Below, one piece after another: positions 2,253 through 56,736 of a stretch of DNA of 64,000 nt. The notes beneath the pieces were generated by a model, which was given only the letters and a program-made list of their open reading frames with translations, did no database searches and was not told the origin of the DNA. The first letter of the stretch is position 1, and each line of letters begins with the position of its first letter. A program made the translations under genes and the position numbers. Location: positions 26,875 to 90,874 of the IMG/VR virus record IMGVR_UViG_3300046453_000093. One strand, 5' to 3'. This DNA is from a virus. Its lineage: Duplodnaviria > Heunggongvirae > Uroviricota > Caudoviricetes.

Positions 2253-2263
2253 AGGTGATTCAA

Positions 2264-2716
2264 ATGGAGTTACAGACTATTCTTGAAAAGAATGGTGGCA
2301 CTATTAACTTTTATGGTCAATGGCAACATGATGGATTTTATTGGATTGAAGCAGACAAGGGACAAATTCATATAGCAGATGATGTATTTATTGGATGGGG
2401 AACTAGAATAGTTTGCAATGAATACATTTACATAGGAAAATGCACAATCATTGCTGAAAATGTAACGATTCGAGATATGAATCATATGTTTGATGAACCT
2501 GATGAAATAAGATACATGAAACATCAACCATATTCAACAGCACCAACAATTATTGAAGATGGGGTATGGGTTGGTGCAGGGGCTAGAATCTTAAAAGGTG
2601 TTAGGGTTGGTCATGGTGCTATTGTAGGTGCAAATGCTGTCGTTACAAAGGATGTTCCACCAAATGCAATTGTTGGTGGAGTACCTGCAAAAATTATTAA
2701 ATATAGACATGAATAG
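2264..2716 (+). CDS. hexapeptide-repeat (left-handed beta-helix) sugar O-acetyltransferase, MAT/WbbJ-like
   Basis: Tandem hexapeptide repeats [46 protein letters not shown]. Start moved to the ATG at 2264, preceded by RBS agaggtga; the track ORF begins at 2201 inside the upstream gene. Confidence 0.75.
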
Positions 2717-2727
2717 GAGGTGACAGG

Positions 2728-3906: not shown

Positions 3907-3923
3907 GGATTGAAGGTGAAAAG

Positions 3924-5021: not shown

Positions 5022-5023
5022 TT

Positions 5024-28000: not shown

Positions 28001-31000
28001 AGACCTAGCAGATGGAATTCGAAAAGCGGGTGCAAGTGCGAAAACTTTTGGTGTTGACCTTGACGAGTTAGTGGGATATGTTTCAGCCATCGGAAGTACC
28101 ACAAGGGAAAGTGGGGCAATCGTAGGAAATGGGTTAAAAACTATTTTCTCAAGGATTACCACTATGGATAGTGCAGAAACCGCATTGAATAACGTTGGTG
28201 TTTCAATTAAAGATATGGCAGGAAGTGTTAGACCTGTTAGTGATATTATATCAGACCTTGCAGGTAGATGGACAAGTTTAACTGACGAACAGCGTCAGAA
28301 TTTAGGGGTTACATTAGCGGGAAGACATCAGCTAACAAGATTTTTGGCGCTCATGAATAATTTCGATATTGCTATTTCTTCAACGAACACCTCTTTAAAT
28401 TCACAGGGTTCAGCTATGAAAGAGCAAGAAAAATTTGCTGACAGCTTAGAAGGACGATTAAATCGTCTAGATACCGCATGGAATAAGCTAACTTTAGCAA
28501 TGGGCGAAGCAGTTATTTCTGATGGGTTAGTTGCGGGGATAGAAGTGTTGGATGCTCTTGCTAAAAGTGTGGGTGCATTTGTAAAAACATTTGGATTCTT
28601 ACCTACTACTTTAGCTATAGTGGGTGTCGCCTTGACACTGTTTAACACTAAGATAAAAACGCTTGTGGTTAGTATGTTTTTTGGTTCTAAAGGCATGGAT
28701 ATGATGAAGCTACACGCTCTAGGAATAACAGAAGGAATGACAAGAGCAGAATACGCTACGTTGAGTCTGAAAACAGGACTTATGGCTCTTGGTGCGGTAA
28801 CAGCCGCAGGAGTAGGATTTTTTATTCTTGGTGCTATAATAGAACACTTTATTAAAAAGTCCGCTGAAGCGCAAAGACAAGCTGAAGAGATAAAGGCAAT
28901 GGAAGATGCTGAGGTCGAAGCTTTAACTAAGAATAGGGAACAAGTTGAAAAACTAATTGAACAATATAATGGTTTAACCGAAGCAAGAGGTAAATATGGA
29001 GAGAACAACACCTTAAAGCAGGAAGAAAAATATTTTGCACTACAACAAAAACTAGGCGAATTATATCCTGCCTTAATAGACCACATTGATGGTGCGGGAA
29101 GAACACATCTAAAAACAAAAGACGCAATTGAGAAAGAAAAGCAGGAAACATATGCTTTAATAGATGCCAAGAAGCTTCAAATGCAAATTGATGGAAAAGC
29201 AAAAATTGCAGAAGCAGAAACAAAAAGAAATGACTTACAGAAAAAAATTGATGATACAAAAAATGAGATAGCCAATCCTGTTAAAGTTGTTGGTTTTGGA
29301 GAAAATCAAAAAGTTGTTCAAAAAAGCCAAGAAGAACTTGATTTATTGGGAAAACAATTAAAGCTATATGAAGGTCAATGGTCAACTGCTTCACAAGCTG
29401 TCACAAACGAAACACTTAAAATAGCAGACGCTTATACAAATGTGGAAATTGACCCAAGCATACAGCAAGGTGTTGACGACTTCTTTAATTCAATTGATAC
29501 ATCTAAGATGAATTCAGGGGAATTAGAATCTTTTTCTCAACAAATTGGTGAAGCTACCAACGCACTTCAAGAAGCATATAAAAACAATGACCCTACAGCA
29601 TTCGACCAAGCTTCAGATGCTATTCGAAATATTGGTAAAAGTATGGGGCTAACAACGAGAGATATGCTTGGATTCGATTTGTCTTTTGAAGGGCTGAAAA
29701 AACAAGCAGAGATGGGTGCAAAAGCTGTTTATGCGGGTAGAGATGGCTTTGATGGTCTTGATGAAAGCGTAAGCGAAGCAGACGGAACTATGGATGAATA
29801 TTCAGGAACAATTGGTGGTGTTGCTGAGACAACCAATGGTTTAGCAGGTGGTACAAGCGCACTAGGTGGGGCAATGGGCGATTTGTTAGGTACAACTGGT
29901 GGCGTAGCTAGTGCCATGTCTGACAATGCCAATGCATCATCTATATTGTTAGGTGTTACTGAAGACCAAATTAAAGTATTGCAAAACGCTCTTGCGGTAT
30001 TCCAAGCCTTTAGTGGGCAACAAAACTTGTCTGAGCAACAAAGTATGATGTTGGCAAATGCAACTGCAACTTTATCAGCACAATTTCCACAATTTACTGG
30101 AAATTTAGCTGAGAATACTAATTTCATGTCAAAACAAATAGGCATGATGGACGCTCTAAGTGGAGTGTCAGCGGACAATACTGCTGTAATGGTTGGAAAT
30201 GAGAACAGTAAGACTAGGGCAGTAATTGAACAAACAAATCAACGTATTAATGGTTATAAAAAAGAAGCACAGGCTCTAAGTGCTTTAATGGACAGAATTG
30301 CGGCTTCTTATGATGAAGAAGGGATGTCAGGTGCAAAAACGAACGCATACCATAACGCTCAGAATAGACTTGGCGAAATAGCTGTTGAATATGCTACTGC
30401 ACAAGCAAGCTTGGTCAAACTCTATCATAGTAGTGGTGTAAAAGCGGGTGTAATCAGTACACCTAAAGATAATAAGAAAACAGGTTCAGGCAATAGTGAT
30501 TCAAAAGACGACAAAATTGAAAAAACAATTGATAAATACGAAGATAAATTACACGAACTTGACCAATCAATAAAAGCTTCTGAATCCGTTCAAAGTCGTT
30601 ACACTGAAGGTTCGACTAAATGGATAGCAGAACAAAAGAAACAAATTAAATTGCTTGGTCAAAAGAAGGCTCAAACTGAATTAGAAGAAAAAGCCTTGAG
30701 GAAACTACTTAAAACTGGCAAATTAGATAAAGACCAAAAAAAGGAAGTAAACTCTCGCCTAAAAGAATTAAGTACTACACAAACCGAATACACCACTCAA
30801 ATAAGAGAGATGGGCTTAGAGCTTGCTGATGCAAAAATTAATTATACAATTGACAAATATGAATCGTCTATAAGTAGCCTTGATGATTCTCTAGCTCAAT
30901 CTGAAGCTAAATTAAAAGGATATACCGAAGGGTCAAAAGAGTGGTCTAGTGAGATAAGTAATCAGATTGGTTTGATAAACAAAAAGAAAACAGCAAATCA

Positions 31001-33023
31001 AAATGAAATTAATGCTCTTAAACAGATATTGAAAACCGATAACCTGTCCGCTGAACAGAAAAAGGAATTAAACAAAACTATATATGCACTAACTACCACC
31101 CAAATTGAATACAATAATTCTGTTAAAGAATTGCAGAAACAACTTTCGCAAGCAAAATTAGACAAGTTGCTTGACAGTATAGCAGATTCAGCGGAAAAAG
31201 CTGATAGAGAGTTAAAGAAAATTGACGATACAATTCACATGACTGACCCAAATGATAAAGATGCAATGTTGAAGGCTCAAGAGAGCAGGATGAAAAAACT
31301 ACTGTCGATGCGGAAAGAAGCATTAGATAATATAAAAAAATTGGAAGACATGAGGGGTTCACTCGCAGGGAATTCTGAAGCACTCAAAAAAAATGCTGAA
31401 GAAATACAAGCATGGAAAGATAAATTAGCAGGAATTGATGTTGATATATTCGACCAAAAAGATGCGATAAAACAAGTTTATGAAGACATTGCTGACGCTT
31501 ATATTGATGCAATGAAAAATGCCTACGAAACCGAAAGAGATATTAAAATAAAAGAAATTGAAAAAATTCGTAAAGCAGAAGAAAAAGCGCATGAAGAAAA
31601 AATGAAAGAGTTCGAAGAACAATCGAAAGCGCTTGATGAAGAGTATAATAAAAAAATGCGTGAGATTGATGATGAAGCGTCTTCTGAGGATTACAGTAAG
31701 GGACTAGGTAAAAAACAAGAAGAATTAGCGACCCTACAGAGCAAGATTAACGCACTGTCATTGGACGATAGCCCTGAAGCTAAAAAACAACTCGCAGAAT
31801 TATTGAAACAAAAAGCTGAAAAAGAAGAAGAAATGAACGATTACATCAATGACCATAATCGTGAACAGAGAAAACAGGCAATTGAAGACGATAGAGATGC
31901 ACGACAGAAGGCAATTGATGACAACAAAGAAGCCGAAGATGAATCTTTTCAAGAGAGACAAGACGCTCTAGACGACCAAATAGAAGCCATTCAAAAAAAA
32001 TATGATGATATTCTTAACGATGAAAAAAAATGGAATACAGTAAGACAAGATATTCTCAATGGCGATATAGCGAAATATAAAGACGAACTAGATGGAATCT
32101 CAGACTATATCAAAAATAACAATAAGGAAATTGGAGAAAGTATATCTAACAATATAACCGATGCTCTTGCTGAAGCCAAAAAAGGCTTGGAAGCAATTAA
32201 AACAGGTTTTGATGACATTTCGAAACAGGCAGATGCCGAGAAAAAGAAACAGGATGATGCTGATGCAAAAAAGAGGAAAGATGAAGCTGATGCAAAAAAG
32301 AAAAAAGAAGAAGCTGAAGCCAAAAAGAAAAAAGATGCTGAAGCTAAGAAAAAGAAGGATGCTGAAGCCAAAAAGAAAAAAGATGCTGAAGCTAAGAAAA
32401 AGAAAGATGCTGAAGCGAAGAAAAAGAAAGATGCTGAAAATGATAAAGACGATAAGGATGATAAGGATGATAAGGGTAGTGGCAAATCATCAAAAAAATC
32501 TTGGGAAAGCATTGGACTAAAGAAGAAGAAATATTCAACACCTAAAGGCGGTTGGAATAAAAACAATGTAAAAGACAGAATGGCTAAACGTGGCTATGAC
32601 AACTCAGTGGCTAATCGTGCAAAACTATATAAGCACTGGGGAGGTAAAGGAACTTTTTCAGGTACAGCATCTCAAAATGCTTGGCTATTGAAGAAGATGA
32701 ACGAAAAAGGATTTAGGTCAGGTGGATATACAGGAGATTGGTTTGGTAACGATGGGAAATTAGCTATGTTACATAAAAAAGAAATTGTTTTAAATAAGGG
32801 CGATACTGAAAACTTCCTGAAAGCTATAGACATCACAAAAGATTTTGCCAATTTGTTAAAAAATATTACAATTCCTAAATTGAACGATTCTTCAAAATCT
32901 GGCAATACAGTCAACTTAAACATCAATATTGAAAATCTTCAAGGTGGCAAAAAAGGCGCAGATGATTTGATAAAAATAATCAATACTAAAATTAGGGGAA
33001 AAGGAGGTTTATTGTTGTCATGA
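25011..33023 (+). CDS. tail tape measure protein, 2670 aa (TP901-family TMP core present)
   Basis: Core region ~nt 27650-28160 (ATKLKDVLSIMGDFGRMGFNENQ...DLADGIRKAGASAKTFGVDLDELVGYVSAIGSTTRESGAIVGNGLKTIFSRI). Hydrophobic TM-like stretch ~28560-28860. Long coiled-coil N-terminal and C-terminal regions with internal duplications. Position before Dit and Tal. Confidence 0.85.
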   Translation: MDNLQILLTGSLNTKSSVPEINKAISIIEQSKDLQKIKLKVDIDPTALDAIKKIAESVKNIPKPKIDMKEATKSAEIQMKQFKEQNVKYWAEIGEGVDGVKKKLGHKYGDSNLLNVTQIKGESEQLKSFSVNVETATGKMRQFNYEKAKVQMANGSEETRWVATLIRDLDITGKEYKEVLKLQARLESQLKSSLTKGSIDKKTHDSLLDNVKQAKSKQELETFQNTNKVLLAEYQTEEKITKEIEKQVQLLQTKMRNINAEGSIPKDRRSSMGSDLKNIKTMEDLTNFTKKYENELITLTATEKKYAQGKEKLSNLILKLGQDGQISEGRLKRLNSALNSSENLAQITKLEQAIARTIANKKKMDDINSFQRKSKSNTDSLITTAGSHVDISALKAYQDRVNSLSLRTKDYQNVLKQLGIEYSDLEKKAKSAQMSEKMMLDEAKDRLKTQLETLRIKGKIDDTQHKALTGKVDSATTSMQLKTFENENKILLAQYDVNQKNTKELQKQIDLQQTKMRNINAQGSVPEKRRTEMGNDLKSIKSMQDLTNFTQKYSKELATATVSEKKFSTGQDAMRNRIKQLGEDGLITEKRLKSLNNAVNTTKNVEEVKKLEGIIDKLEAKVKKKQKIELFQAGSKVDIQNLQRTYGAYIDASKLRDYDNAVKALTPDTKNLNHEMALLIKKFAELSANAKDAKKLKMPNLNGLTPEQQMKSNLTSQLQKMREASTLTEKSFIRLNNSINSSHNIAELMKLDGILKRQATRKENKFDVGLFKRQMETKIQNMTTTYGDKHIDQSALQKFEQSLTRLDPKSRTLKNDLKLLRQEMAELESNTRRASGATEQANMSMGKMLATALKKFPVWMLSATLFYAPIRALRSMTDRLIEIDTAMTQIRRVMDMPDFKFTELLESAVNMSDELATKLKDVLSIMGDFGRMGFNENQLVDITKTAQVTQNVSDLNSTEAVDTLTSAMLNFNVSAEDSMTIIDKLNEVDNNYAISTKDLADGIRKAGASAKTFGVDLDELVGYVSAIGSTTRESGAIVGNGLKTIFSRITTMDSAETALNNVGVSIKDMAGSVRPVSDIISDLAGRWTSLTDEQRQNLGVTLAGRHQLTRFLALMNNFDIAISSTNTSLNSQGSAMKEQEKFADSLEGRLNRLDTAWNKLTLAMGEAVISDGLVAGIEVLDALAKSVGAFVKTFGFLPTTLAIVGVALTLFNTKIKTLVVSMFFGSKGMDMMKLHALGITEGMTRAEYATLSLKTGLMALGAVTAAGVGFFILGAIIEHFIKKSAEAQRQAEEIKAMEDAEVEALTKNREQVEKLIEQYNGLTEARGKYGENNTLKQEEKYFALQQKLGELYPALIDHIDGAGRTHLKTKDAIEKEKQETYALIDAKKLQMQIDGKAKIAEAETKRNDLQKKIDDTKNEIANPVKVVGFGENQKVVQKSQEELDLLGKQLKLYEGQWSTASQAVTNETLKIADAYTNVEIDPSIQQGVDDFFNSIDTSKMNSGELESFSQQIGEATNALQEAYKNNDPTAFDQASDAIRNIGKSMGLTTRDMLGFDLSFEGLKKQAEMGAKAVYAGRDGFDGLDESVSEADGTMDEYSGTIGGVAETTNGLAGGTSALGGAMGDLLGTTGGVASAMSDNANASSILLGVTEDQIKVLQNALAVFQAFSGQQNLSEQQSMMLANATATLSAQFPQFTGNLAENTNFMSKQIGMMDALSGVSADNTAVMVGNENSKTRAVIEQTNQRINGYKKEAQALSALMDRIAASYDEEGMSGAKTNAYHNAQNRLGEIAVEYATAQASLVKLYHSSGVKAGVISTPKDNKKTGSGNSDSKDDKIEKTIDKYEDKLHELDQSIKASESVQSRYTEGSTKWIAEQKKQIKLLGQKKAQTELEEKALRKLLKTGKLDKDQKKEVNSRLKELSTTQTEYTTQIREMGLELADAKINYTIDKYESSISSLDDSLAQSEAKLKGYTEGSKEWSSEISNQIGLINKKKTANQNEINALKQILKTDNLSAEQKKELNKTIYALTTTQIEYNNSVKELQKQLSQAKLDKLLDSIADSAEKADRELKKIDDTIHMTDPNDKDAMLKAQESRMKKLLSMRKEALDNIKKLEDMRGSLAGNSEALKKNAEEIQAWKDKLAGIDVDIFDQKDAIKQVYEDIADAYIDAMKNAYETERDIKIKEIEKIRKAEEKAHEEKMKEFEEQSKALDEEYNKKMREIDDEASSEDYSKGLGKKQEELATLQSKINALSLDDSPEAKKQLAELLKQKAEKEEEMNDYINDHNREQRKQAIEDDRDARQKAIDDNKEAEDESFQERQDALDDQIEAIQKKYDDILNDEKKWNTVRQDILNGDIAKYKDELDGISDYIKNNNKEIGESISNNITDALAEAKKGLEAIKTGFDDISKQADAEKKKQDDADAKKRKDEADAKKKKEEAEAKKKKDAEAKKKKDAEAKKKKDAEAKKKKDAEAKKKKDAENDKDDKDDKDDKGSGKSSKKSWESIGLKKKKYSTPKGGWNKNNVKDRMAKRGYDNSVANRAKLYKHWGGKGTFSGTASQNAWLLKKMNEKGFRSGGYTGDWFGNDGKLAMLHKKEIVLNKGDTENFLKAIDITKDFANLLKNITIPKLNDSSKSGNTVNLNINIENLQGGKKGADDLIKIINTKIRGKGGLLLS
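32254..32476 (+). repeat. in-frame tandem repeats inside TMP: ~7 copies of a 24-nt unit (gatgctgaagcYaaRaagaaaaaR = DAEAKKKK) followed by 4 copies of a 9-nt unit (gataaRgaY = DKD)
   Basis: Directly visible periodicity in nucleotide and protein sequence (KKKKDAEAKKKKDAEA...DKDDKDDKDDKG). Confidence 0.85.
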
Positions 33024-43718: not shown

Positions 43719-44453
43719 ATGTTAACTTATCAAAAACGCAATTTGGAGAACATTGACAAGCTTGCTGACCACACTAAAGCTATTGCTTTAAAGTGGCATG
43801 AGTATCTAGTGCAAAATAAAATTGATATTCTGATTTATAGCACTATTAGAACAAAGGCACAACAAGAAGAAAATGTCAGAAAAGGTGTATCTCAAACAAT
43901 GAAATCCTATCACATTGTAGGTCAAGCATTGGATTTCGTAAGAATCCAAAATGGTGACGAGGATTGGGATGGATACAATAAGCCTGATATTAAAAAAGCA
44001 ATTGCAGAAGCAAAAAGACTTGGATTTGAATGGGGAGGGGATTGGAAATCATTTGTTGACAAACCGCACCTACAATTTAATTTTAATGGGTATGGTACTG
44101 ACACATTTGGAAAATACAAAGAGCCTAAGCCAGTTGAGAAGCCAAAAGTAGAATTAAAACCTGCTGAGAAGCCAGTTGAAAAGCCAAAGGTGGAGAAGCC
44201 AAAAGTTAAAGCAGACACTAAAAAAGACAAGCTTGAATACAAACGTATACTGAAAAATGGCTGTGAAGGTCAAGATGTAAAAAATCTTCAGAATGCGTTA
44301 AACAAGTTAAACTTTAAATGTGGAGTTGCTGATGGTAAGTTTTTAGACAAGACAGAAGATGCTGTAATCAGGTTCCAAAAAGTATATCTTCCAAGTGAAG
44401 TTGATGGAATGGTTGGTAATCACTTTATTGATGCAATTAACAAAAAACTTTAA
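43719..44453 (+). CDS. endolysin: N-terminal peptidase M15 (L-alanyl-D-glutamate peptidase, VanY/CwlK-like) + Lys/Pro/Glu-rich linker + C-terminal PG_binding_1 domain
   Basis: SYHIVGQALDF (SxHxxGxAxD). DKPH (DxxH zinc ligands). Linker KPVEKPKVELKPAEKPVEKPKVEKPKV. C-terminal GCEGQDVKNLQNALNKLNF...DGKFLDKTEDAVIRFQ...DGMVG. Confidence 0.85.
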   Translation: MLTYQKRNLENIDKLADHTKAIALKWHEYLVQNKIDILIYSTIRTKAQQEENVRKGVSQTMKSYHIVGQALDFVRIQNGDEDWDGYNKPDIKKAIAEAKRLGFEWGGDWKSFVDKPHLQFNFNGYGTDTFGKYKEPKPVEKPKVELKPAEKPVEKPKVEKPKVKADTKKDKLEYKRILKNGCEGQDVKNLQNALNKLNFKCGVADGKFLDKTEDAVIRFQKVYLPSEVDGMVGNHFIDAINKKL

Positions 44454-45060: not shown

Positions 45061-45450
45061 ATGAAAAATATAGAGACATGGATTCCTGTTGTTGTAGCAT
45101 TTGTAACTGGTCTTACACCATTTTTTATTGCAAGAAGTACCAATAAAAAAGACCTTACTGTAAATGACAGGCAATTGCTTTCAGAGGATGAAAGACAGTT
45201 TAGAGCAGATTTAAAGGGAATTATTGGTTCTTACAAGCAGGAATTAGAAGACACAAGAAATGAATTAAAACAGTCAAGGGAAGAAATAAAAGAATTAAGG
45301 GAAGAAATAGCAAAATTACATAAAATCAATCTTGTTCTAACCTTGGAAAATCAAAAATTAGTATTAAGAGTTGAAGAATTCAGCGTGTTCTTAAAGAAGC
45401 TAAAAAACAATGAGGAAATTGATGAAAAGGAGTTTGATTTAGATGATTAA
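45061..45450 (+). CDS. BhlA/XhlA-like holin-associated membrane protein (N-terminal TM + long coiled coil)
   Basis: TM IETWIPVVVAFVTGLTPFFIA followed by a charged coiled coil. Position adjacent to the holin, as in SPbeta bhlA-bhlB. Confidence 0.5.
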   Translation: MKNIETWIPVVVAFVTGLTPFFIARSTNKKDLTVNDRQLLSEDERQFRADLKGIIGSYKQELEDTRNELKQSREEIKELREEIAKLHKINLVLTLENQKLVLRVEEFSVFLKKLKNNEEIDEKEFDLDD

Positions 45451-45709
45451 TTGGAAAGTGCGTTTTCGCAATAAGAAGTGGGTTGTAGGCTTTATTTCTC
45501 AATTATTAATTGTTGCTCAAATGGTTACAGTTGGATTAAATCAGTCAGGTGCAATTGATTTTGTTTGGTCTGACCAAATAAATATTTGGGTACTAGGATT
45601 TATGAATACTGTATTGGTAATGCTTGGTATGTTGGGAATTGTGCAAGACCCAACAACTAAAGGTTATTCAGATAGCGATAATGCCTTAGACTACAAAGAA
45701 CCAAAATAA
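45443..45709 (+). CDS. holin (88 aa, two TM; phi-LC3/BhlB-like)
   Basis: Two TM helices. C-terminal DPTTKGYSDSDNALDY motif characteristic of phi-LC3-family holins. Overlaps upstream gene. Confidence 0.7.
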   Translation: MINWKVRFRNKKWVVGFISQLLIVAQMVTVGLNQSGAIDFVWSDQINIWVLGFMNTVLVMLGMLGIVQDPTTKGYSDSDNALDYKEPK

Positions 45710-45767: not shown

Positions 45768-45977
45768 TTATCCGATGAATTCAAAGACATTAACTTTACG
45801 GTTGTTCTCAATAGTTTTGCCATTAATCTTTATAACTCCTTTTCTGATTAGTTGACCCACAGATGAAAAAAGATAATCGGAATTATTAAAAACAGTTATT
45901 AATTGAGAATAGGTGGCTCTGTGAACATTTTTTAGAAAAAATTGAACTAAATCTCGATATATTTCAAAGGTCATCAT
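45768..45977 (-). CDS. small (69 aa) putative winged-helix DNA-binding protein
   Basis: RBS agcgaggtga. Helix-turn-helix-like TYSQLITVFNNSDYLFSSVGQLIRKGVIKINGK. Own extended -10 promoter and operator-like palindromes upstream. Confidence 0.4.
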   Translation of the reverse strand: MMTFEIYRDLVQFFLKNVHRATYSQLITVFNNSDYLFSSVGQLIRKGVIKINGKTIENNRKVNVFEFIG

Positions 45978-46027: not shown

Positions 46028-46097
46028 ATTATACATTATTACGTAAAAAATGACATTATGCTTATAAACTGCGTAAAATGTCATTTTTACGCAGTTT
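46028..46097 (-). promoter_or_regulatory. extended -10 promoter (TGTATAAT) with upstream palindromic operator array
   Basis: Perfect 13-bp inverted repeat aaactgcgtaaaa-tgtca-ttttacgcagttt (46066-46097) plus a third half-site acgtaaaaaatgaca (46041-46056). TGTATAAT at 46035-46028 on minus. Confidence 0.45.
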
Positions 46098-46230
46098 ATA
46101 ATAGCTTTTATGTTTATCTTTCCTTTTTTGAAATTCTCCATAAAATCAACGATACTGATAGCAACACAGGTATCAGTATAATTAAATCATCTATTGAACT
46201 GTAAAAATCCTTCATGAACAGTACATCTCC

Positions 46231-46262
46231 TCAAATAAAAAAGAACGCTATAATTAGCGTTC
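46231..46262 (-). terminator. rho-independent terminator of the SPFH operon
   Basis: gaacgcta-taat-tagcgttc hairpin followed by ttttttatttg on minus strand. Confidence 0.7.
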
Positions 46263-46284
46263 CAAAAATATCATTTTTTATTAC

Positions 46285-47283
46285 TTACTTCAATAAGGAT
46301 TCAGGTAAATCTAGAATACTTCCATTTCCACCCATAACAGCAGGTAGCTTTACTTGTGGCAGTACTTTAATTAATTCAGCCTGATTGTCCAATTCTTTTA
46401 GGCGAATTGTTTCATTAATAATGCTTCTACGCTTCTCAACAGCCTTTGCTTCTTGCTCTGCAACTTTTACATCGTTTTGCGCCTTTTCCAAATTCTTTTG
46501 GTTGTCGATTGCTTGCGCTTCTTTTGCTTGAATAGCATTAAATGATTTATTGATTGCTTCTTGAACTTTAGGGTCAACATATTCTAAATCGCCAACATAT
46601 CCAATATTTTGTAATGTGATACCAAAATCGTTAAAATATGGTGTGGCAACCTTTCGTACATGTTCAATTACTTCTGCTTTATGAGAACGAATTTCCTCCA
46701 TTGACATACTTCCATATTCTTCTAAAAGAATTGTGCCTAACTTATTACGTACTTCTGTGTCCATAATGTTAGCCAAATTGCTACCACGATATTGATACAG
46801 ATATTTGGCTGTATTGAATTCCTCAACTTTTGCAGTTGCAGTCAATCCGATTTTAAATTTAATGGAGTCCTTTGATTCTCCAATAAACCCACTCGCTTTA
46901 CCATCTGAAGAACGAGTTGCATCGTTGAACCATTGGCGATTTACTGGTGTTCTATCGACCAAAGGAACTCTTACTGTATCAACATACTTCCCTTGCCAAC
47001 TATGTCTTCCAGTTTGAACCCACTTTCTAGGTATTTGAATCCTTTTGGTTGCAACCTGCATCTCTTCTAAGTATTTTACACTTTCGAATTTTGCTTGTTC
47101 AGAAGTCTTTCCTTCTAATGGAATAACGAATGCAGTCTGATTGGCATCTACATTAACAAATTTTGGTTTGTTGTAAGGCTTTACGCATCCTGATAATGTA
47201 GTGACTCCTATTGCTAAAATGATTGGTAAAATAATTTTCTTTTTCATTGATTCAATTTCCCCTTTTTTGATTTTATTTATCAT
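46285..47283 (-). CDS. SPFH (band 7 / flotillin-stomatin-like) domain lipoprotein
   Basis: Lipoprotein signal KKKIILPIILAIGVTTLSGC. C-terminal coiled-coil segment QAIDNQKNLEKAQNDVKVAEQEAKAVEKRRS typical of SPFH proteins. Confidence 0.6.
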   Translation of the reverse strand: MINKIKKGEIESMKKKIILPIILAIGVTTLSGCVKPYNKPKFVNVDANQTAFVIPLEGKTSEQAKFESVKYLEEMQVATKRIQIPRKWVQTGRHSWQGKYVDTVRVPLVDRTPVNRQWFNDATRSSDGKASGFIGESKDSIKFKIGLTATAKVEEFNTAKYLYQYRGSNLANIMDTEVRNKLGTILLEEYGSMSMEEIRSHKAEVIEHVRKVATPYFNDFGITLQNIGYVGDLEYVDPKVQEAINKSFNAIQAKEAQAIDNQKNLEKAQNDVKVAEQEAKAVEKRRSIINETIRLKELDNQAELIKVLPQVKLPAVMGGNGSILDLPESLLK

Positions 47284-47529
47284 TTATTTTTTGTTAAATA
47301 CATTTCTAATATCTTTTTGTAATACCAATGCCACAATAACTACTTCACAAATCCAAACATATGGTTTAAGATTCTCGTATATTGTCAACATGGCGTTTGA
47401 TTCATATGAATCATTTAATTGTTGGACTGCCAAATTTGAACTAACAACTGGTTCAAACGCTGAAATAATTACGTTCAAGATAGAAAGTATAATAGCGGTA
47501 ATTAATGCCTTAATTATCAATCGCTTCAC
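47284..47529 (-). CDS. small 2-TM membrane protein, NfeD-like partner of the SPFH protein
   Basis: Two hydrophobic helices (IKALITAIILSILNVIISAF; YVWICEVVIVALVL). Directly abuts the SPFH gene. Overlaps upstream gene by 4 nt. Confidence 0.45.
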   Translation of the reverse strand: MKRLIIKALITAIILSILNVIISAFEPVVSSNLAVQQLNDSYESNAMLTIYENLKPYVWICEVVIVALVLQKDIRNVFNKK

Positions 47530-47843
47530 TCTGTCACCTCCACTACATTTTTAAACACCTTTTCAAATGCTTCCAATCCTCTCTGATTAAGTAGGCTCTT
47601 GTGAAAAACAACATTCTTACCATAAATTTCATTGTAGTGATGCCCCATTGGTTGGTGTTCATTATAATAGGTCAAATTGTTTTCGTCTTTCATAATTTCA
47701 AAAGATTCAATGTCATCATACCTACTTTTAACAGCAAATTTGTGAGTATCATTTGCAAAAATCGCCATGCTACAGACATCTACCATTCTTTTTGAAGGTA
47801 ATCCATACATCAGTTCTAATGCCAATTCTCTTGCATCTTCCAA
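47526..47843 (-). CDS. hypothetical protein, first gene of the SPFH operon
   Basis: 105 aa. RBS aagagaggtga. Follows the sigma-A-like promoter. Confidence 0.4.
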   Translation of the reverse strand: MEDARELALELMYGLPSKRMVDVCSMAIFANDTHKFAVKSRYDDIESFEIMKDENNLTYYNEHQPMGHHYNEIYGKNVVFHKSLLNQRGLEAFEKVFKNVVEVTE

Positions 47844-47888
47844 GAAATATTCACCTCTCTTTTTTCTTAATCTCTTATCTACTTTCTT

Positions 47889-47917
47889 AGTATATCATTA
47901 TATTTATCACTTGTCTA
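47889..47917 (-). promoter_or_regulatory. sigma-A-type promoter TAGACA-N17-TATACT for the SPFH operon
   Basis: -35 at 47917-47912 and -10 at 47894-47889 (minus strand), spacer 17 nt. Confidence 0.5.
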
Positions 47918-47943
47918 CTAATATAGGAAACTTTTTCAAAAAA

Positions 47944-47969
47944 AAGAATGGTCTATACCGACCATTCTT
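47944..47969. terminator. hairpin terminator (functions for the minus-strand rusA-like gene)
   Basis: aagaatggtc-tatacc-gaccattctt perfect 10-bp stem with tttttttt on the minus strand. Confidence 0.7.
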
Positions 47970-50808: not shown

Positions 50809-51106
50809 GCTGATTCACCTTCTTTAAATACTGAACCATTTTCAGTAAAGTATTTGCTAATTCTTCAGTTTGCATTATCGTTAGAAAGATTGACGAACCT
50901 TCGCCTAGATGATAAACATCACTGCAATCATCAGTTATTTCCAAACAAATAGGGGTAGTATCGTCCTGTTCTGCTGTCTCTCTTAGTGTAGCACTATTAC
51001 TAAATACTTTTACATAATTGTCACCCATATTTTCTTTCTGATAATTGTAGATATATTGGTCTTCAAATTTTACATCAATCATTTGCATTTTCCACCTTTC
51101 TTTCAA
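50801..51106 (-). CDS. hypothetical protein
   Basis: 101 aa. Confidence 0.35.
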   Translation of the reverse strand: MKERWKMQMIDVKFEDQYIYNYQKENMGDNYVKVFSNSATLRETAEQDDTTPICLEITDDCSDVYHLGEGSSIFLTIMQTEELANTLLKMVQYLKKVNQHD

Positions 51107-52397
51107 CTAGTTTGCAAGTTTGTAAAAATGCTTCTTGTATGTCATCTCGCTGTTTCCATTCTTCATTTTCGTCCATATACCATTTACCATCTTCTGATGT
51201 GCCAGTAATATTAATCACATCTCCAACGTACAGATGGGGAATACCATCCTTGTCATAATACTTCTTTTTCTTAACTTTCAATTTTATAATGTCTCCTGTT
51301 TTCAAGTTGTACAAGGATAAAATTGGAGTATACTTATCATTAATATCAATGATGGCAAAAGTATTTTCATCCTGATTAAGATATGTTGTTCTCATGAATC
51401 CATAGAATTCTTTTTCGATTTCTAATGGCTTATAAAGAGAGATTTGTTCTGCCTGTTTAAAGGTCTGTTTTAAATTTGTTTCATTTTCATGTTGTAATTG
51501 GATTCTTTTTATTTTGCTTTTTTCAACATACTTTTTATCGTATTTGATTCCTTTGCCATTCTTAAAAGAATCGTAAAGTTCAAAAATTAATTGCTTTTCT
51601 CCAAATTTTTTAAAGAAATCTAATTGGATTAGAATCTTCATCTGTCTGCTGTCTATAGCTGTCTTTTCAATGATATCAACTAACAAGTCTGTAAAGAATT
51701 TATAGTCATTATCCTTTAAATTGTATAGGCTTTCAGCCATTTGTAGATTGCAGTGTTTGACTAATTTCATTCCATAATTTATTTTATCGTTTGTTAGAGC
51801 GCAATAAGATACAGGATTTTTAAAACTGATAGGGTCAACCTGAACACCCAATCGTTTTGCTTCAAGATAAATTCCTTCGAACCTGTCAGGCTTTCCATCA
51901 AACGAGTTAAATAGTGCTGTCATGAATTCTTTTGGATGATAGACTTTTAAAAAGGCACAGATGTAAGCGATTATCGCATATGCAAATGAATGAGATTTAT
52001 TAAAGGAATATTTAGAAAACTCAAGCATGTCCTTCCAAAGCTGTTCAAATTGCTCATTCGTCCACCCTCTATCTTGGACAAGCCCTTTAATTAATTCATC
52101 ACGACATTCAGCCATAAGTTTAGGTAATTTTTTTCCAGTTGCTTTCCTAAGCTTGTCGCTGTTTCGCATCTTAGCCAATCTGCCAACTTCAATTAATTGC
52201 TCTTGGAATACAATGATTCCATATGTAGGTTTCAGGATATTCTCCAAATCAGGGTGAAGGTATTCAAATTCTTCTTCACCATGTTTTCTAGCAATATAGT
52301 TGTCTATGTATTTCATAGCACCTGGTCGATAAAGTGCATTAGCAACAGCCAAATCGTCTAGACAAGTTGGTTTCATTTTTTCAAGTGTTCTTTTCAT
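51075..52397 (-). CDS. dnaE: DNA polymerase III alpha (DnaE-type) - 3' exon / C-terminal portion
   Basis: SGMKRTLEKMKPTCLDDLAVANALYRPGAMKYIDNYIARKHGEEEF...PTYGIIVFQEQLIEV aligns to E. coli DnaE [30 protein letters not shown]...NFIDRKHGREE...PTYGIILYQEQVMQI. Confidence 0.8.
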   Translation of the reverse strand: MKRTLEKMKPTCLDDLAVANALYRPGAMKYIDNYIARKHGEEEFEYLHPDLENILKPTYGIIVFQEQLIEVGRLAKMRNSDKLRKATGKKLPKLMAECRDELIKGLVQDRGWTNEQFEQLWKDMLEFSKYSFNKSHSFAYAIIAYICAFLKVYHPKEFMTALFNSFDGKPDRFEGIYLEAKRLGVQVDPISFKNPVSYCALTNDKINYGMKLVKHCNLQMAESLYNLKDNDYKFFTDLLVDIIEKTAIDSRQMKILIQLDFFKKFGEKQLIFELYDSFKNGKGIKYDKKYVEKSKIKRIQLQHENETNLKQTFKQAEQISLYKPLEIEKEFYGFMRTTYLNQDENTFAIIDINDKYTPILSLYNLKTGDIIKLKVKKKKYYDKDGIPHLYVGDVINITGTSEDGKWYMDENEEWKQRDDIQEAFLQTCKLVERKVENAND

Positions 52398-52404: not shown

Positions 52405-52799
52405 GCACATAATCCTATGTTTCCATAGGTGCTGACTATATCATCTCACCTCTAAAAATAGAGGTTTGTTCCGTATTTCGAGTGGTAGCCTATTGCCCAC
52501 CCTACTCCCTACCTCTCGGATTGGGATAGTCGATTCACATTTAGATTATATTTAACATTTGTCTAAGATTAAACACTTATTGTCATCACCTCAATATTAA
52601 TCAAGGCAATATGTTAAATATAATCATTTAGCACAGGATTACCATATCTTAAAAGACTTAGGCTTCCCTGTTAGCACGAATATTAATAAGTCATTTCCTA
52701 CTTAAAAGGACACACCTTATTCGCACACCTCTAGGCAATAGAGTTAACGAAATTTAATCGAGTAGTGTCACCACTACAAGTGAGCCATTTTACTAACTC
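52405..52799 (-). ncRNA. group I self-splicing intron (no ORF) interrupting the dnaE-type polymerase gene; boundaries approximate
   Basis: Non-coding ~390 nt between two polymerase segments that are colinear with DnaE. On minus strand, R-like element gugaaucGACUAu (~52535) and S-like element gaugauaUAGUCag (~52437) can form P7 (GACUA/UAGUC). Multiple in-frame stops. Confidence 0.7.
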
Positions 52800-54701
52800 A
52801 AATTGAAATACTCCATCTGTAAAACCTTTTTGGAATACTTCCTTATATACTTTTTCATCATCAAAGTCTATGATTGCGGGGTCTAAATATTCACGATACT
52901 TTTTCTTAATCATGTCCAATACATCATAATAAACATCAACGGTTCTTAACCCAAGAAGGTCTACTTTAACTATTCCAAGGTCTTCAGCGTCATTCATATC
53001 CATTTGGAAAACTAAGTGACCATCGTTCTCTGCAAGTGCATGGTAATAATCTAATTCATCAATAGTAATAGCTTTCCCACATGGATGTACACCGAAGCTT
53101 CTAGGTAAACCCGCCAACTTTTCAGCATACATGAATAATTGCGGATACCTCTTTTCCCATTTCTGTGTATAGCCTTCCTCTCTTGCGTCTTGGATAGTTA
53201 AGTCATTTAAGTCTTTTGTGATATTGTTCAAGATATTAAAGTCAATACCTAGCACTCTACCAACATCTTTAATTGCAGACTTGTCCCAAATGTAGCCAAA
53301 TTGTCCAAGTGAAGCAAATTTCTTTTTCGTATATTTCTCCTCAATGTTTTGGACAACCTTTTCTCTGTCTTTTGTGCCGAAATCTGAATCTACATCGGGG
53401 ATTTTTAGTTCTTTTGGTGTGATGATTCCCTCTTTCAATAAATCCAATTGACCTACATCAATAAATCTTTCAAAGTATAGTCCATACTTTATAGGGTCAA
53501 TGTCAACTATATTTAAGAGGTAAGCAATAAGACATCCTCCACCACTTCCCCTTGCAATCCCACGTCTTTCAACAGAATTTACATATGAGTAAACTAATAA
53601 GAAGTATCCAATGAATCCCATATCTCTTACAGCATTGAATTCATATTCTAAACGCTCTTGATATATTTTACGTGTGTTTTTGTCCTTTTTATTTATTCCC
53701 CTCTGTTTCCAACCTGTATTACAAAGGTCTTTGAGATATTCTTCTTCGTTTTTATATTCGAATGGAATATCAACATGTGGAATTAAAGGTGCTGATAGTG
53801 GAATATGAACGTTGCATTTGTCAGCTATTAATCTTGTTGCTCTTATCGCAATCTCAGCTTCTTCTTCTGTAAGAGTGGGCTGAAGAAGTCTCATTACATC
53901 AGATTCGCTTTGTAAAAAGGCATCGAGATAAGTTTCGCCCGCTTCCCTGTTTTGTCCAATTTGAATAAATATTCCATGTAAGTCGAAATCTTCTTCTTCT
54001 GTATAGTGGCTATCTGCTGTAACAACATATTCGACATTCATTTCTTTTGCTATATCTACAATTGCCCTATTAAGCCTTCTTTGTTTAATGTCTCTATGAG
54101 ATTGAATTTCTAAGTAATAATCATCCTTGAATACTTCTTTATATTTCTTTATTACACCTTTTGCTTCAGTAATGCCCTGTTCAGTTATAATAATGTCTTC
54201 TTTGTTTCCAATTTTCCCACTAGCAAGCGTTTGTTGAACTTGTCCTGCCATACATCCTGAAAAAATAATTAAACCTTCACTATGTTGTTTTAGTAGTTCA
54301 AAGTCTACCCTTGGTTTGCTATAAAAACCCTCTAAGTAGCCTTTGGTGACTAGTTTGTTTAGGTTGAGTCTACCTTTTTCATTTTTAGCCAAAACAGTCA
54401 TATGATAATATTTATTGTCTTTGTCTTTATCAAACCTACTCTTTGGAGAAATGTATAGTTCACAACCATGTATGTACTTCACACTCTGTTTTTTGCATTC
54501 TTTATATATTTTTACACTACTAAACAATGAACCATGCTCAGTAATTGCCATTGCAGACTGATTCATTTTTTTAACTTTATTTATCATTTGTTCAGGTTTT
54601 GACATGCCATCAAGTAATGAGTATGCCGAATGACAATGTAAATTGATAAATTTGTCATCATCTGAAACTTTAATTAATCCATGTGTATTACTATTGCACA
54701 C
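52731..54701 (-). CDS. dnaE: DNA polymerase III alpha (DnaE-type) - 5' exon / N-terminal portion (PHP + palm); last ~20 codons are intron read-through
   Basis: PHP domain FINLHCHSAYSLLDG near N-terminus. ORF ends ...GVFQFE followed by intron-encoded residues (E. coli GVFQLESRGMK). Confidence 0.8.
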   Translation of the reverse strand: MCNSNTHGLIKVSDDDKFINLHCHSAYSLLDGMSKPEQMINKVKKMNQSAMAITEHGSLFSSVKIYKECKKQSVKYIHGCELYISPKSRFDKDKDNKYYHMTVLAKNEKGRLNLNKLVTKGYLEGFYSKPRVDFELLKQHSEGLIIFSGCMAGQVQQTLASGKIGNKEDIIITEQGITEAKGVIKKYKEVFKDDYYLEIQSHRDIKQRRLNRAIVDIAKEMNVEYVVTADSHYTEEEDFDLHGIFIQIGQNREAGETYLDAFLQSESDVMRLLQPTLTEEEAEIAIRATRLIADKCNVHIPLSAPLIPHVDIPFEYKNEEEYLKDLCNTGWKQRGINKKDKNTRKIYQERLEYEFNAVRDMGFIGYFLLVYSYVNSVERRGIARGSGGGCLIAYLLNIVDIDPIKYGLYFERFIDVGQLDLLKEGIITPKELKIPDVDSDFGTKDREKVVQNIEEKYTKKKFASLGQFGYIWDKSAIKDVGRVLGIDFNILNNITKDLNDLTIQDAREEGYTQKWEKRYPQLFMYAEKLAGLPRSFGVHPCGKAITIDELDYYHALAENDGHLVFQMDMNDAEDLGIVKVDLLGLRTVDVYYDVLDMIKKKYREYLDPAIIDFDDEKVYKEVFQKGFTDGVFQFELVKWLTCSGDTTRLNFVNSIA

Positions 54702-55377
54702 TTGAATCGACCCCTCCTATTCCATATTCTTCAAATAAATGTTTTTGTGGGGAATATTTTCCGAAATATTTAAACTCAGCTTCTAACCTTAACTTGATAG
54801 CTTCTTCAATAATTTTTGAAGTACCAAGGTATATTTTTTCATAATCAACCTTTATGTGTGCTTGATAATTTTTATCTCTTTTTTGATACGAAACTCCAAT
54901 AAAGCCTGTATTGCTTCTAGAGACACCTTTATTTCTAGAATTTTGCTGATTATTACAAACTCTTAAATTAGACTTTCTATTGTCTAATCTTTTTGTGTTT
55001 TCGTGGTCTACTTGGTCATTGTCGCTTGTAACATCCATAATTAATCTATGCATTCTAATGGCAGAACTATTACAAACTGCATATCCATGTTTTGACAAAT
55101 GCCATTTATGTTTATTAACCTTGTCTATATCCTCAATGTCAATTAATGCCCTAGCAATTTCCCTGTTTGCTTTATCGTACAGAACAACTTCAGCAAAATT
55201 ATCTTTAATAATTATTTCATTCTTATCAAATTTTGTTTTTGTTAATATTTGTCCGTATTGTAGCATCTGACTATAATGTTTTCCACACATGTATCTACCA
55301 TTTGTTATCTTGGACTTTGGTGTGTACATTCGTGATGTTTCATATTCACTTATTCCGCAAATATCGCAAGTTCTCAA
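54691..55377 (-). CDS. free-standing HNH homing-type endonuclease with AP2 DNA-binding domain
   Basis: HNH motif VDHENTKRLDNRKSNLRVCNNQQNSRN. AP2-like GFIGVSYQKRDKNYQAHI...YLG. N-terminal Cys cluster. Immediately upstream of the intron-containing polymerase gene. Confidence 0.75.
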   Translation of the reverse strand: MRTCDICGISEYETSRMYTPKSKITNGRYMCGKHYSQMLQYGQILTKTKFDKNEIIIKDNFAEVVLYDKANREIARALIDIEDIDKVNKHKWHLSKHGYAVCNSSAIRMHRLIMDVTSDNDQVDHENTKRLDNRKSNLRVCNNQQNSRNKGVSRSNTGFIGVSYQKRDKNYQAHIKVDYEKIYLGTSKIIEEAIKLRLEAEFKYFGKYSPQKHLFEEYGIGGVDSSVQ

Positions 55378-55497: not shown

Positions 55498-56736
55498 CTA
55501 TTTTAAATACTCTTTTTCTTTCTTTTTATTGAATTCATCGGCTTTGTCAAGCAAATATTTGAAGACTGCCTTTTGACCTGAACTACTAGCTGAGAACATC
55601 ACATTGGTATTTTTTCCTATTCCTCTGATTCCACCATAATTAAGCCAATCTTCATTCTTGTATGTCCAATCAATTTGTCCTAATAATGTGTAAATATCAT
55701 CTTCATTCGCAAACAAACGTTCTTCTTTAGCTTGAGACACAAATTTACATATTCCAATTAGCGCATAGCTTTTTTCAATAATATACCTTCCTTTTGTGTC
55801 CATATCGTCAGGCAATGCGAATAAGATTTTTTCAAATTTAGAATTCACACTATTCTTCACTCTGTCAAAATTCTTTTTCTTCAAGAAATTCTTATCACAG
55901 ACAAGGCTTGAACTCAATAGCTCTTTAATGGAGTTGTAGATTGTCGTTAATAGGAATGTGTTTTGATTACTCTTGAATATAGATTGCTTATCGGTTTCAA
56001 CACCATAATGAATGAAATACCTGTTGGTTTCACCTATTTCCTTAGCCATCTTCGCAAATAAATCTGTTTGAGACAGACGGATATTGGCACTTTTAGACGG
56101 TCTTCTAGCCAAGTTGTTCAAGTCGAAAAATAATTGAGATTCTTGTTCTTCGTCTAAACCGTTAAAAATGATAACAGGTATAGTCATTTCTTCCAACATT
56201 TCTAGTTGTTTTTCAATATTCGTCTTTTCGCTTAAGTCACTTGTCTTCTCAATTTTTGTTTTTAATTCTTGTATTGCTTCTTTAACGCTTTCTGTTCTAT
56301 GTTGACCATCGTTTATGGACATCTTACTATTGGTGTCAATAAGGATGGTTCTTTTATCATCATCATAAATAATAGTTCCCTTGCAGGTAACAGTTATTGA
56401 GTTAAAGAATCGCATGTATGCTTCTGAATTCTCTTCGTCCCCAATACCGCTAAGTATATATTTCTTTAAAGATTTAACATTGTTTTTGCTCATGCTACGC
56501 TGTATCTTTGGAAACACTTCCAAAAATTTAGACAAGTCTTTAAATTTTAACATTGAAGAATATACTTCTTTCCCAAACTGATAGCCCTTCACTCCTGAGA
56601 TTTGAGCATACCGTTCAAAATTTAAATCAATCGTCTTTTTGTTCTTGGTTCTATAGAGTATGTCTTCCGATTTCTGTAAATCAGTTGCGAATTGCGACAT
56701 CATCATTTCTCCTTTGTTTTGCAATTTTTTCTTCAA
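55498..56736 (-). CDS. DGQHR-domain protein (DndB-like family)
   Basis: Motif INDGQHRTESV. ~400 aa. Probable true start at one of the Met triplet (MMMSQ, ~56706) to avoid overlap with the upstream RHH gene. Confidence 0.6.
   Translation of the reverse strand: MKKKLQNKGEMMMSQFATDLQKSEDILYRTKNKKTIDLNFERYAQISGVKGYQFGKEVYSSMLKFKDLSKFLEVFPKIQRSMSKNNVKSLKKYILSGIGDEENSEAYMRFFNSITVTCKGTIIYDDDKRTILIDTNSKMSINDGQHRTESVKEAIQELKTKIEKTSDLSEKTNIEKQLEMLEEMTIPVIIFNGLDEEQESQLFFDLNNLARRPSKSANIRLSQTDLFAKMAKEIGETNRYFIHYGVETDKQSIFKSNQNTFLLTTIYNSIKELLSSSLVCDKNFLKKKNFDRVKNSVNSKFEKILFALPDDMDTKGRYIIEKSYALIGICKFVSQAKEERLFANEDDIYTLLGQIDWTYKNEDWLNYGGIRGIGKNTNVMFSASSSGQKAVFKYLLDKADEFNKKKEKEYLK

Follow-up and report, generated by a model that had tools for sequence, protein, structure and literature searches.

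We describe a phage-borne pair of genes, one for an SPFH lipoprotein and one for a small two-transmembrane (2-TM) protein, in a 64,000-nucleotide (nt) stretch of viral DNA (positions 26,875 to 90,874 of IMG/VR virus record IMGVR_UViG_3300046453_000093, referred to hereafter as the window). SPFH proteins are universal membrane organizers, several of whose cage structures have been solved only since 2022, and phage-encoded SPFH genes have been noted in genome papers since 2006. The lipoprotein, encoded by the third open reading frame (ORF3) of a minus-strand unit at 46.2–48.0 kb, is a new member of an already annotated phage SPFH lipoprotein family; the conserved partner, encoded by ORF2 of the same unit, appears to be new. 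What is added here is one branch of phage SPFH proteins that has an obligatory small, non-NfeD partner, in which the pair is predicted to face outward and the two genes occur fused, split and permuted in nature. Taken as a whole, our reading of the pair—a lipid-anchored, outward-facing SPFH assembly that, together with its 2-TM partner, would guard or partition the envelope of the infected cell—has in our estimation about an even chance of being correct. At two genes and ~1.2 kb, the pair is a concrete and testable unit.

Judged from its sequence and predicted fold, ORF3 (46285–47247, minus strand, 320 amino acids (aa)) is a bona fide, divergent, full-length SPFH protein. It matches the Pfam model Band_7 (PF01145) with an expectation value (E) of 6.5e-10 (39.8 bits, cut-off 23.6) and, among the PHROGs, phrog_200 “lipoprotein” (1.5e-19); no HflK, HflC, flotillin or other curated NCBIfam model matched at E ≤ 0.1, and a flotillin likeness proposed in a first-pass annotation of the window found no counterpart when the models were compared, there being no flotillin match in NCBIfam or in Pfam beyond Band_7. 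A model of ORF3 built with AlphaFold2 (AF2) on 52 homologues (predicted local distance difference test score, pLDDT, of 88.4) consists of an N-terminal β-rich part, the SPFH α/β domain and then a long helix, predicted to run uninterrupted for 73 residues (226–298, pLDDT mostly >90). In a Foldseek search of the PDB, this model matched full-length subunits of every solved SPFH cage with probability 1.0, the matches comprising prohibitin (8rrh, 2.6e-11), HflK/C (7vhq, 9cz2, 7wi3), stomatin (9oh9, 9z7u), erlin, QmcA–YbbJ (8z5g, 1e-8), flotillin (9bq2) and the vault protein. The alignments to full-length cage subunits span ~290–320 columns, long helix included, and isolated SPFH domains (e.g. 4fvj, 1win) match at a root mean square deviation of about 2.5 Å.

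The N-terminus of ORF3, read from the ATG at 47247 (MKKKIILPIILAIGVTTLSGC), has the organization MKKK-IILPIILAIGVTT-LSG-C, that is, a basic n-region, a hydrophobic core and a lipobox of the [LVI][ASTVI][GAS]C type (here L-S-G-C). The predicted lipoprotein signal peptide (MKKKIILPIILAIGVTTLSG, then C) spans 47185–47247 on the minus strand, with the codon of Cys21 at 47185–47187. The longest version of the ORF is 332 aa (46285–47283); we take the ATG at 47247 as the true start because of the homologue alignments and an AAAGGGG box. Cys21 is invariant in the 52 homologues (alignment A2), and a lipobox-like xx[GAS]C is present in 73 of 84 family ORFs. The invariant cysteine, the Band_7 match and the fold matches to cage subunits together bear out the first-pass call of an SPFH lipoprotein with lipobox LSGC. 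Since the protein is a predicted lipoprotein, and both the signals in the window and the closest named relatives of ORF3 are of Gram-positive type, we would place it on the outer face of the cytoplasmic membrane.

The closest named relatives of ORF3 come from Bacillus phage G, Paenibacillus and Shouchella; gp65 of phage G, the sole cultured phage with a close SPFH homologue, is 47% identical. Searches (tblastn) of 50,697 phage records from three family members returned only this gp65 and one uncultured phage, and the distant members P0112, L052 and L059 provided no bridge to the cultured T4-, Vi01- or N4-like SPFH lipoproteins. The window family resembles the phrog_200 lipoproteins (Vi01_108c and those of T4-like, RaK2-like and N4-like GIB1 phages) in being phage-encoded, in carrying a lipoprotein signal and in belonging to large phages, but by these searches it is a branch separate from its cultured phrog_200 relatives.

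The feature that sets this branch apart is the partner gene. We assembled 58 IMG/VR and 34 genome-assembly loci that encode relatives of the ORF3 SPFH protein, and a hidden Markov model (HMM) of the partner, built from the small upstream ORFs, was searched against the six-frame ORFs of 94 loci (6952 ORFs, minimum length 40 aa). It matched 79 ORFs; in 77 cases the matched ORF directly adjoins the SPFH gene on the same strand or forms the N-terminal portion of the SPFH ORF, and the other two lie on the same strand, 793 nt upstream. In at least 79 of the 93 related loci, the partner gene adjoins or overlaps the SPFH gene or is fused to it, and among the 14 loci negative by HMM most visibly carry a 2-TM N-terminal extension. 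When the copies from the window and from phage G were omitted from the HMM, the 81-aa ORF2 was the single match among the window ORFs (5.8e-19), and three further loci, fetched by another route, have the partner immediately upstream (1.9e-17, 2.4e-23, 2.8e-12). Its position is variable: the partner lies upstream in ~46 loci, with stop and start often overlapping, immediately downstream in 11–12, and is fused in frame to the SPFH N-terminus in at least 20 by HMM. Many more fusions, of 415–479 aa, emerged when the fused protein P0112 served as query, and phmmer with the 81-aa sequence against 1.84 billion representative proteins gave 42 matches, 40 of them free-standing at 69–143 aa. All-against-all clustering of 2740 neighbouring ORFs found that the partner alone, and no third gene, is shared across lineages.

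ORF2 (47284–47529, minus strand) is filled entirely by two TM segments and a 30-residue loop: a basic N-terminus leads into TM1, an acidic, predicted outside loop with the sequence A-V-Q-Q-L-N-D-S, TM2 and a basic C-tail. The family loop (~33 residues, net acidic) has the motif A-[VIM]-x-Q-[VLM]-x-[DGN]-[ST], or in short A-x-x-Q-[LV]-x-[DG]-[ST], whose Q is present in 38 of 39 partner seed sequences. In phage G, the 84-aa 2-TM ORF gp64 ends 2 nt before gp65; it shares this layout and loop motif with ORF2, and the homology of the two is clear from the family HMM rather than from direct BLASTP, which is not significant (E = 1.2). ORF2 matched no Pfam family at E ≤ 0.1, no NCBIfam model and no PHROG at E ≤ 0.01. 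On these comparisons, it belongs to a conserved 2-TM family of its own, the dedicated partner of the SPFH lipoprotein. The first-pass annotation had rightly paired the lipoprotein with a dedicated small membrane protein, but the NfeD likeness that it gave this partner does not stand: there is no match to NfeD (PF01957), 81 aa are too short for an OB fold, and the protein is predicted to be an all-helical hairpin, as is its equivalent in the AF2 model of fusion P0112. We likewise rejected a holin or T4 Imm-type identity for ORF2, the Pfam search above having included Imm_superinfect and the PHROG search having returned nothing.

The charge distribution of the partner is informative on topology. 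On average each sequence carries 1.4 K+R against 0.03 D+E at the N-terminus and 2.9 K+R in the C-tail; by the positive-inside rule, both termini would face the cytoplasm, and the motif loop would share the outer side with the SPFH domain. The natural fusions agree with this assignment. Their order is TM1, loop, TM2, a short basic linker, a signal-peptide-like third hydrophobic helix, a cysteine and then the SPFH domain, a topology that is self-consistent only if the SPFH domain lies outside. In the AF2 model of P0112, helices span residues 2–36, 42–73, 75–84 and 87–105 (pLDDT ~76–88), the tip of the first hairpin bearing the motif. The internal cysteine (C108, alignment A3) is invariant in 36 of 36 aligned fusions and is preceded by G, S or A, which suggests that the fused precursors, too, are lipidated and that signal peptidase II perhaps splits them into two proteins. 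Several fusions (e.g. P0128–P0135, L060–L065) have no internal Met before the third hydrophobic helix, and this, in conjunction with the invariant cysteine, also suggests cleavage; fusions that do contain an internal Met-Lys-Lys could, from their sequence, be separately translated as well. In one small fused sub-branch from IMG/VR (L047, L052, L053, L056), the lipobox cysteine is lost and an A-x-A|YYDK-type, signal-peptidase-I-like site is found instead, preceding the conserved N-terminal segment.

In the window, the two genes form part of a minus-strand unit that the first-pass annotation had outlined correctly as three consecutive ORFs (105 aa, 81 aa and the SPFH lipoprotein) between two hairpin terminators. 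ORF1 (47526–47843, 105 aa, soluble and acidic) has a TTG start with AGAGAGGTGA upstream; ORF2 has a GTG start with GGAGGTGA upstream, and this start shares GTGA with the ORF1 stop. On the 5′ side of the unit, a hairpin at 47969–47944 (AAGAATGGTC-GGTATA-GACCATTCTT, then T8) has a 10-bp stem with four GC pairs and a folding energy of −16.5 kcal/mol (RNAfold); it lies 12 nt past the RusA stop at 47981 and ends the RusA operon. The unit is closed by a second, likewise convincing terminator-like hairpin at 46263–46242 (GGAACGCTA-ATTA-TAGCGTTCT, then T6; 9-bp stem, −11.5 kcal/mol), 21 nt past the ORF3 stop codon. Terminator-like sites number five at 44–50 kb, against 2.3 ± 1.5 in shuffles, and are essentially absent from the remaining 14 kb of the minus-strand arm. 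A sigma-A/sigma-70-type promoter-like site at 47889–47917 (minus strand; TAGACA, a 17-nt spacer and an extended −10, TGnTATACT) is located in the 137-nt gap just after the first terminator and matches 10 of 12 consensus positions plus the TG. In the closest relative (L096, SPFH protein 67% identical), TAGACA-17-TATTAT with a TG stands directly upstream of the 2-TM gene of the orthologous pair. The G+C content of the unit (0.31–0.36) is that of its flanks, and an Rfam scan found no structured RNA family anywhere in the window.

The first-pass annotation treated all three genes as one unit, and here a distinction is required between the unit and the module within it. ORF1 gave only a weak PHROG match (phrog_34883, 2.3e-5), no Pfam or NCBIfam match and no homologue in ~96 related loci; from this distribution, it is a lineage-specific local passenger that stands outside the conserved module. 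The module itself comprises two genes, because ORF1 has no relatives in any related locus and only the partner is shared across lineages.

By its gene content, the window is part of a large SPbeta-like phage of Bacillus type. The window has structural and replication genes of SPbeta type, in keeping with the first-pass description of the unit as phage-borne, and these include a split DNA polymerase III alpha, a tape-measure protein, a holin and an endolysin; a contig of another sample that reaches ~7 kb upstream of the window encodes YonB-, YonD- and YonG-type SPbeta proteins. Genes of the plus-strand arm include a sugar-nucleotide/glycosyltransferase cluster and those for a 1547-aa CBM96/fn3 protein and a 2670-aa tape-measure-like protein, and towards its end an endolysin gene (43719–44453, plus strand) and finally a holin gene (45443–45709, plus strand). 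The minus-strand arm encodes the split DNA polymerase III alpha, an HNH endonuclease, a DndB-like protein, RNase H, a dNMP phosphatase, guanylate kinase and RusA, the last two being the window neighbours of the unit. The unit is the last transcription unit of this early/replication arm and is convergent with the lysis cassette, the holin gene being ~600 bp from its end. Window genes led to further contigs of 21.6 kb and 45.7 kb, which extend the coverage by those ~7 kb on the upstream side only, with structural genes of SPbeta type. Neither an integrase nor a repressor was found over the 64 kb of the window and these 7 kb, ~20 kb of the 90.9-kb contig being unseen, and at the DNA level neither the unit nor the tape-measure gene had a megablast match in the 50,697 phage records.

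The pair is found in Bacillota, Verrucomicrobiota, Lentisphaerota, Planctomycetota, Bacteroidota and Patescibacteria, and in phages of these. Most IMG/VR contigs are far shorter than 100 kb; of the 58 with the pair, 22 are at least 100 kb and nine at least 200 kb, and phage G, which also has it, is a 497-kb phage. Cultured SPbeta-like phages in the phage collection lack the pair, and its position differs among relatives. In L095, its neighbours are YorF, AAA_24, guanylate kinase and YorH; in L096, RecJ and an intein-containing ribonucleotide reductase, strong sigma-A-like sites also preceding neighbouring early genes; in L097 (a Shouchella clausii assembly), ribonucleotide reductase, ligase and Sipho_Gp157, with a holin and an amidase 6 kb away; and in L101, YopX, AAA_24, YorH and DnaB. 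A group of Lentisphaerae phages has AAA_24 upstream and RusA downstream, and in phage G the pair is near a Cro/CI-type regulator and a sigma factor. Judged from these neighbours, the pair travels in early replication/recombination regions, and they would point to early or middle expression of the unit. Because the pair occurs in early gene clusters and is common on contigs of at least 100 kb, a sigma-A-type promoter does not imply expression from a prophage.

Fused genes also occur on bacterial chromosomes. Two Pirellulaceae chromosomes, that of Bremerella volcania and one other, have such a gene amid ordinary cellular genes and divergently paired with the gene of a sigma-54 enhancer-binding protein. 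The intergenic regions (L099 8816–9003, from B. volcania CP036289, and L102 4818–5003) keep a perfect palindrome, GTGAGACTTTTCACTA-N4-TAGTGAAAAGTCTCAC, and a −24/−12-like CGGTACG-N5-TGC (GG-N10-GC) ~45 nt before the start codon. By analogy, this layout recalls pspF–pspA and may represent a psp-like stress regulon; another chromosomal copy of the fused gene has unrelated neighbours.

Comparison with characterized SPFH systems clarifies what is shared and what is particular to the window pair. In the SPFH–NfeD operons (QmcA–YbbJ, FloT/YuaG–YuaF and Pyrococcus PH1511–PH1510), a membrane partner gene is likewise tightly linked to the SPFH gene, the SPFH domain is followed by a long helix as in ORF3, and the partner is probably at or inside the ring. 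Unlike those partners, that of the window has no NfeD/OB domain, and natural fusions place its family N-terminal to the SPFH domain; ORF3 itself is predicted to be extracytoplasmic and lipid-anchored, not cytoplasmic with a TM or hairpin anchor. Its predicted orientation matches that of HflK/C, not that of flotillins or QmcA. As in HflK/C–FtsH, the SPFH domain would lie on the outer side of the cytoplasmic membrane, and a ring of TM helices fencing a membrane patch is what we propose for the window pair; the differences are that there is one SPFH gene rather than two paralogues, a lipid anchor with a separate hairpin protein, and no match to the HflK or HflC models.

Other phage SPFH lipoproteins have been reported without an assigned role, their function being stated as unknown in four papers (PMC1524935, PMC7760394, PMC10892097, PMC13239085). 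SPFH/Band 7 genes were listed in the T4-like phages 44RR (ORF098c), Aeh1 (ORF064c) and RB43 (ORF139c; PMC1524935), the function of the SPFH protein in RaK2-like jumbo phages was called “poorly understood” (PMC7760394), and the reason for the gene in the N4-like phage GIB1 “remains unclear” (PMC13239085, 2026). Our literature search found no paper that reports a function for phage SPFH proteins and none that describes the 2-TM partner, which agrees with the earlier description of the phage-encoded version as uncharacterized. Many viral SPFH models, including some from giant viruses, are present in BFVD.

A parallel in a cultured phage is offered by Salmonella phage Vi01, a virulent Gram-negative phage that has a small-TM plus SPFH-lipoprotein arrangement (L098 6022–7644, 74.0–75.6 kb). 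Its SPFH lipoprotein Vi01_108c (lipobox LLSGC), encoded at 74 kb, is overlapped at its start by a 69-aa 2-TM ORF (Vi01_109c), and no SPFH gene is present at 115–157 kb. Vi01_109c has a basic loop and lacks the motif A-x-x-Q-L-x-D-S; the arrangement is analogous, but not detectably homologous, to the window pair, the basic loop implying the opposite topology. Beyond Vi01_109c lie a 102-aa ORF annotated as “endolysin” and then a gene annotated as superinfection exclusion, with an Rz-like spanin gene ~3 kb off (PMC3220722).

We propose the following mode of action. Export would bring the SPFH lipoprotein to the outside of the host cytoplasmic membrane, the partner would insert with both termini inside and its conserved loop facing outward, and in the window phage both would be co-transcribed with ORF1, probably by host sigma-A RNA polymerase as far as the upstream signals indicate. 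By analogy with solved cages, the lipoprotein may assemble on the membrane as a ring or dome, with its long C-terminal helix mediating oligomerization. As it has a lipid anchor only, the partner hairpins would supply a transmembrane “fence” and cytoplasmic tails, yielding a split HflK-type architecture whose two parts the natural fusions re-join. We infer that the motif loop of the partner contacts the strongly conserved N-terminal ETAFVIPLEG segment of the SPFH protein. In the infected cell, the assembly would enclose or cover a membrane patch from its outer side; from early infection, and possibly also in lysogens, it would keep the membrane intact and closed to further attack, whether by secondary DNA entry or by premature lesions. 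Envelope guarding is the weakest step of the proposal, and we advance it tentatively, as a role argued by analogy; it is favored by the outward location, the early context, the bias towards large genomes (we assume that large-genome phages have long infection cycles), the Vi01 neighbourhood and the psp-like regulation of cellular copies. Should the pair act at the membrane to protect lysogens or infected cells, phage exclusion mechanisms would gain a further structural class, and the pair would provide a minimal model for SPFH rings that recruit transmembrane fences.

A bolder version of the same proposal, which we think rather doubtful, is that the pair constitutes a previously unrecognized two-component membrane cage that seals or partitions the envelope, and with it a new superinfection-exclusion or envelope-guarding class in large phages. 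It would include, under the same joint doubt, the suggestion from the fused sequences that signal peptidase II cuts one precursor into both partners and so yields a 1:1 stoichiometry.

Several points weigh against our proposal. The timing of expression is argued from gene context, and ring formation and the contact between partner and SPFH protein are extrapolated from other SPFH families, to which ORF3 is only 11–18% identical in the fold-search alignments; by sequence, moreover, the family profile matches solved structures weakly, the best being prohibitin (E = 0.002). The data would fit several roles, of which envelope guarding is one, and papers up to 2026 call phage SPFH function unclear (PMC7760394, PMC13239085). 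Cellular, non-prophage copies of the fused gene exist, from which it follows that the ancestral function would not be phage-specific. Finally, promoter consensus matches in this AT-rich region number 26, against 28.4 ± 5.8 expected in shuffles; they are at chance level, and the hexamers alone are therefore no evidence for the site at 47889–47917. The sigma-A promoter named in the first-pass annotation (TAGACA-N17-TATACT) is present as a site, but the near-consensus hexamers on which it was called carry no weight by themselves, and the putative promoter is supported instead by its position in the gap and by the equivalent site in L096.

Among other explanations, the one closest to envelope guarding, from which it differs mainly in timing, is that the unit is a lysogenic-conversion moron, transcribed from the prophage by sigma-A RNA polymerase and serving superinfection exclusion or an abortive-infection-like membrane defence. 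Terminators flank the unit, which has a promoter-like site of its own, the pair is sporadic (absent, as noted, from cultured SPbeta-like phages and variable in position), and SPbeta-like phages are typically temperate, with accessory genes expressed from the prophage. Envelope-directed exclusion proteins are also familiar from phages: the lipoproteins Llp of T5 and Ltp of Streptococcus thermophilus TP-J34, both superinfection-excluding and thus precedents, and Imm (2-TM) and Sp of T4. These proteins, expressed early or from the prophage and acting at the outer face of the membrane, resemble the window pair by broad analogy, but they have no sequence relationship to it and none is an SPFH protein. 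Sigma-A-type promoters are, however, used by early lytic genes of SPbeta-like phages and so are equally expected here, members of the family lie within early replication modules and are found disproportionately on very large phage contigs (phage G included), the unit shows no compositional anomaly relative to its flanks, and neither integrase nor repressor was seen in the part of the contig covered. The link to known anti-phage defence systems drawn in the first-pass annotation also finds no backing in PADLOC-DB v2, where none of the three unit proteins has a match at E ≤ 1. We consider a moron possible but improbable.

The outward topology inferred from the lipobox, which is that of HflK/C, permits a different function in which the SPFH ring mimics HflK/C and captures host FtsH, or some other membrane protease or channel, by its extracytoplasmic domain; membrane and regulatory proteins of host or phage would then be turned over differently, for example in the lysis–lysogeny decision, HflK/C–FtsH being established as controlling the stability of lambda CII. 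HflK/C structures are among the best fold matches, and the Joint Genome Institute annotated an identical protein as “regulator of protease activity HflC”. Prohibitin, stomatin and erlin are fold matches of equal quality, though, so that the fold search does not favor HflK/C among them, and with no HflK or HflC NCBIfam match, a single SPFH gene in place of a heteromeric pair and a conserved client-like element that is the phage's own 2-TM protein and not a protease, we regard mimicry as unlikely. An accessory role in lysis timing, in which the ring corrals holins or delays their assembly or the 2-TM protein is itself holin- or antiholin-like, is suggested by location: the unit ends close to the holin gene at a convergent junction with the lysis cassette, the holin and amidase of L097 are ~6 kb away, and in Vi01 the 102-aa “endolysin” and Rz-like spanin genes are within ~3 kb of the SPFH lipoprotein gene. 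The N-in/C-in hairpin, too, resembles the class II holin layout. Yet the unit is on the strand opposite the lysis cassette and belongs to the early arm, its neighbours in most relatives are replication and not lysis genes, the 81-aa protein has no holin family match in Pfam or PHROGs, and the window already has a complete holin/endolysin set, leaving this role quite improbable. Acquisition from the host of a canonical SPFH–NfeD operon, FloT/YuaG–YuaF- or QmcA–YbbJ-like and acting at the cytoplasmic face, would account for a membrane-protein gene directly before the SPFH gene and for the QmcA match (8z5g). This we find scarcely credible and have rejected: the partner lacks an NfeD domain, is too short for an OB fold and forms a distinct family with its own motif, the lipoprotein signal directs ORF3 to the outer and not the cytoplasmic face, and no flotillin, HflK/C or other curated NCBIfam model matches it.

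Between the closing terminator of the unit and the holin gene lies a separate 69-aa ORF (45768–45977, minus strand) with a good GAGGTGA box; it has no homologues in the related loci. On its 5′ side, we observe a palindrome with a 17-bp stem (46062–46101) and overlapping promoter-like sites. Elsewhere in the minus-strand arm, the DNA polymerase III alpha-type replicase is encoded in two ORFs, 51075–52397 and 52731–54701, ~330 nt apart, which correspond to the N- and C-halves of phrog_405 (PHP/DNA_pol3_alpha/finger domains). Immediately upstream is the gene of an HNH endonuclease (54691–55377), and the split may represent an intron, an intein or a split gene. The DndB-like protein (55498–56736, minus strand; Pfam PF14072, 3e-38), within the same replication arm, belongs to a family tied to DNA-sulfur modification. 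On the plus strand, the sugar-nucleotide/glycosylation cluster occupies 383–8363 and continues upstream of the window (L105 7665–15636); it encodes an epimerase, a hexapeptide transferase, three glycosyltransferases, a GHMP kinase, a SIS-domain protein, a HAD phosphatase and a nucleotidyl transferase, and its targets could be the host surface, virion proteins or DNA. The 2670-aa tape-measure-like ORF (25011–33023, plus strand; PhageMin_Tail) is of virion type, as is the 1547-aa protein with CBM96 and fn3 domains (10545–15188, plus strand), which is followed by an 827-aa GDSL lipase/acylhydrolase-domain protein.

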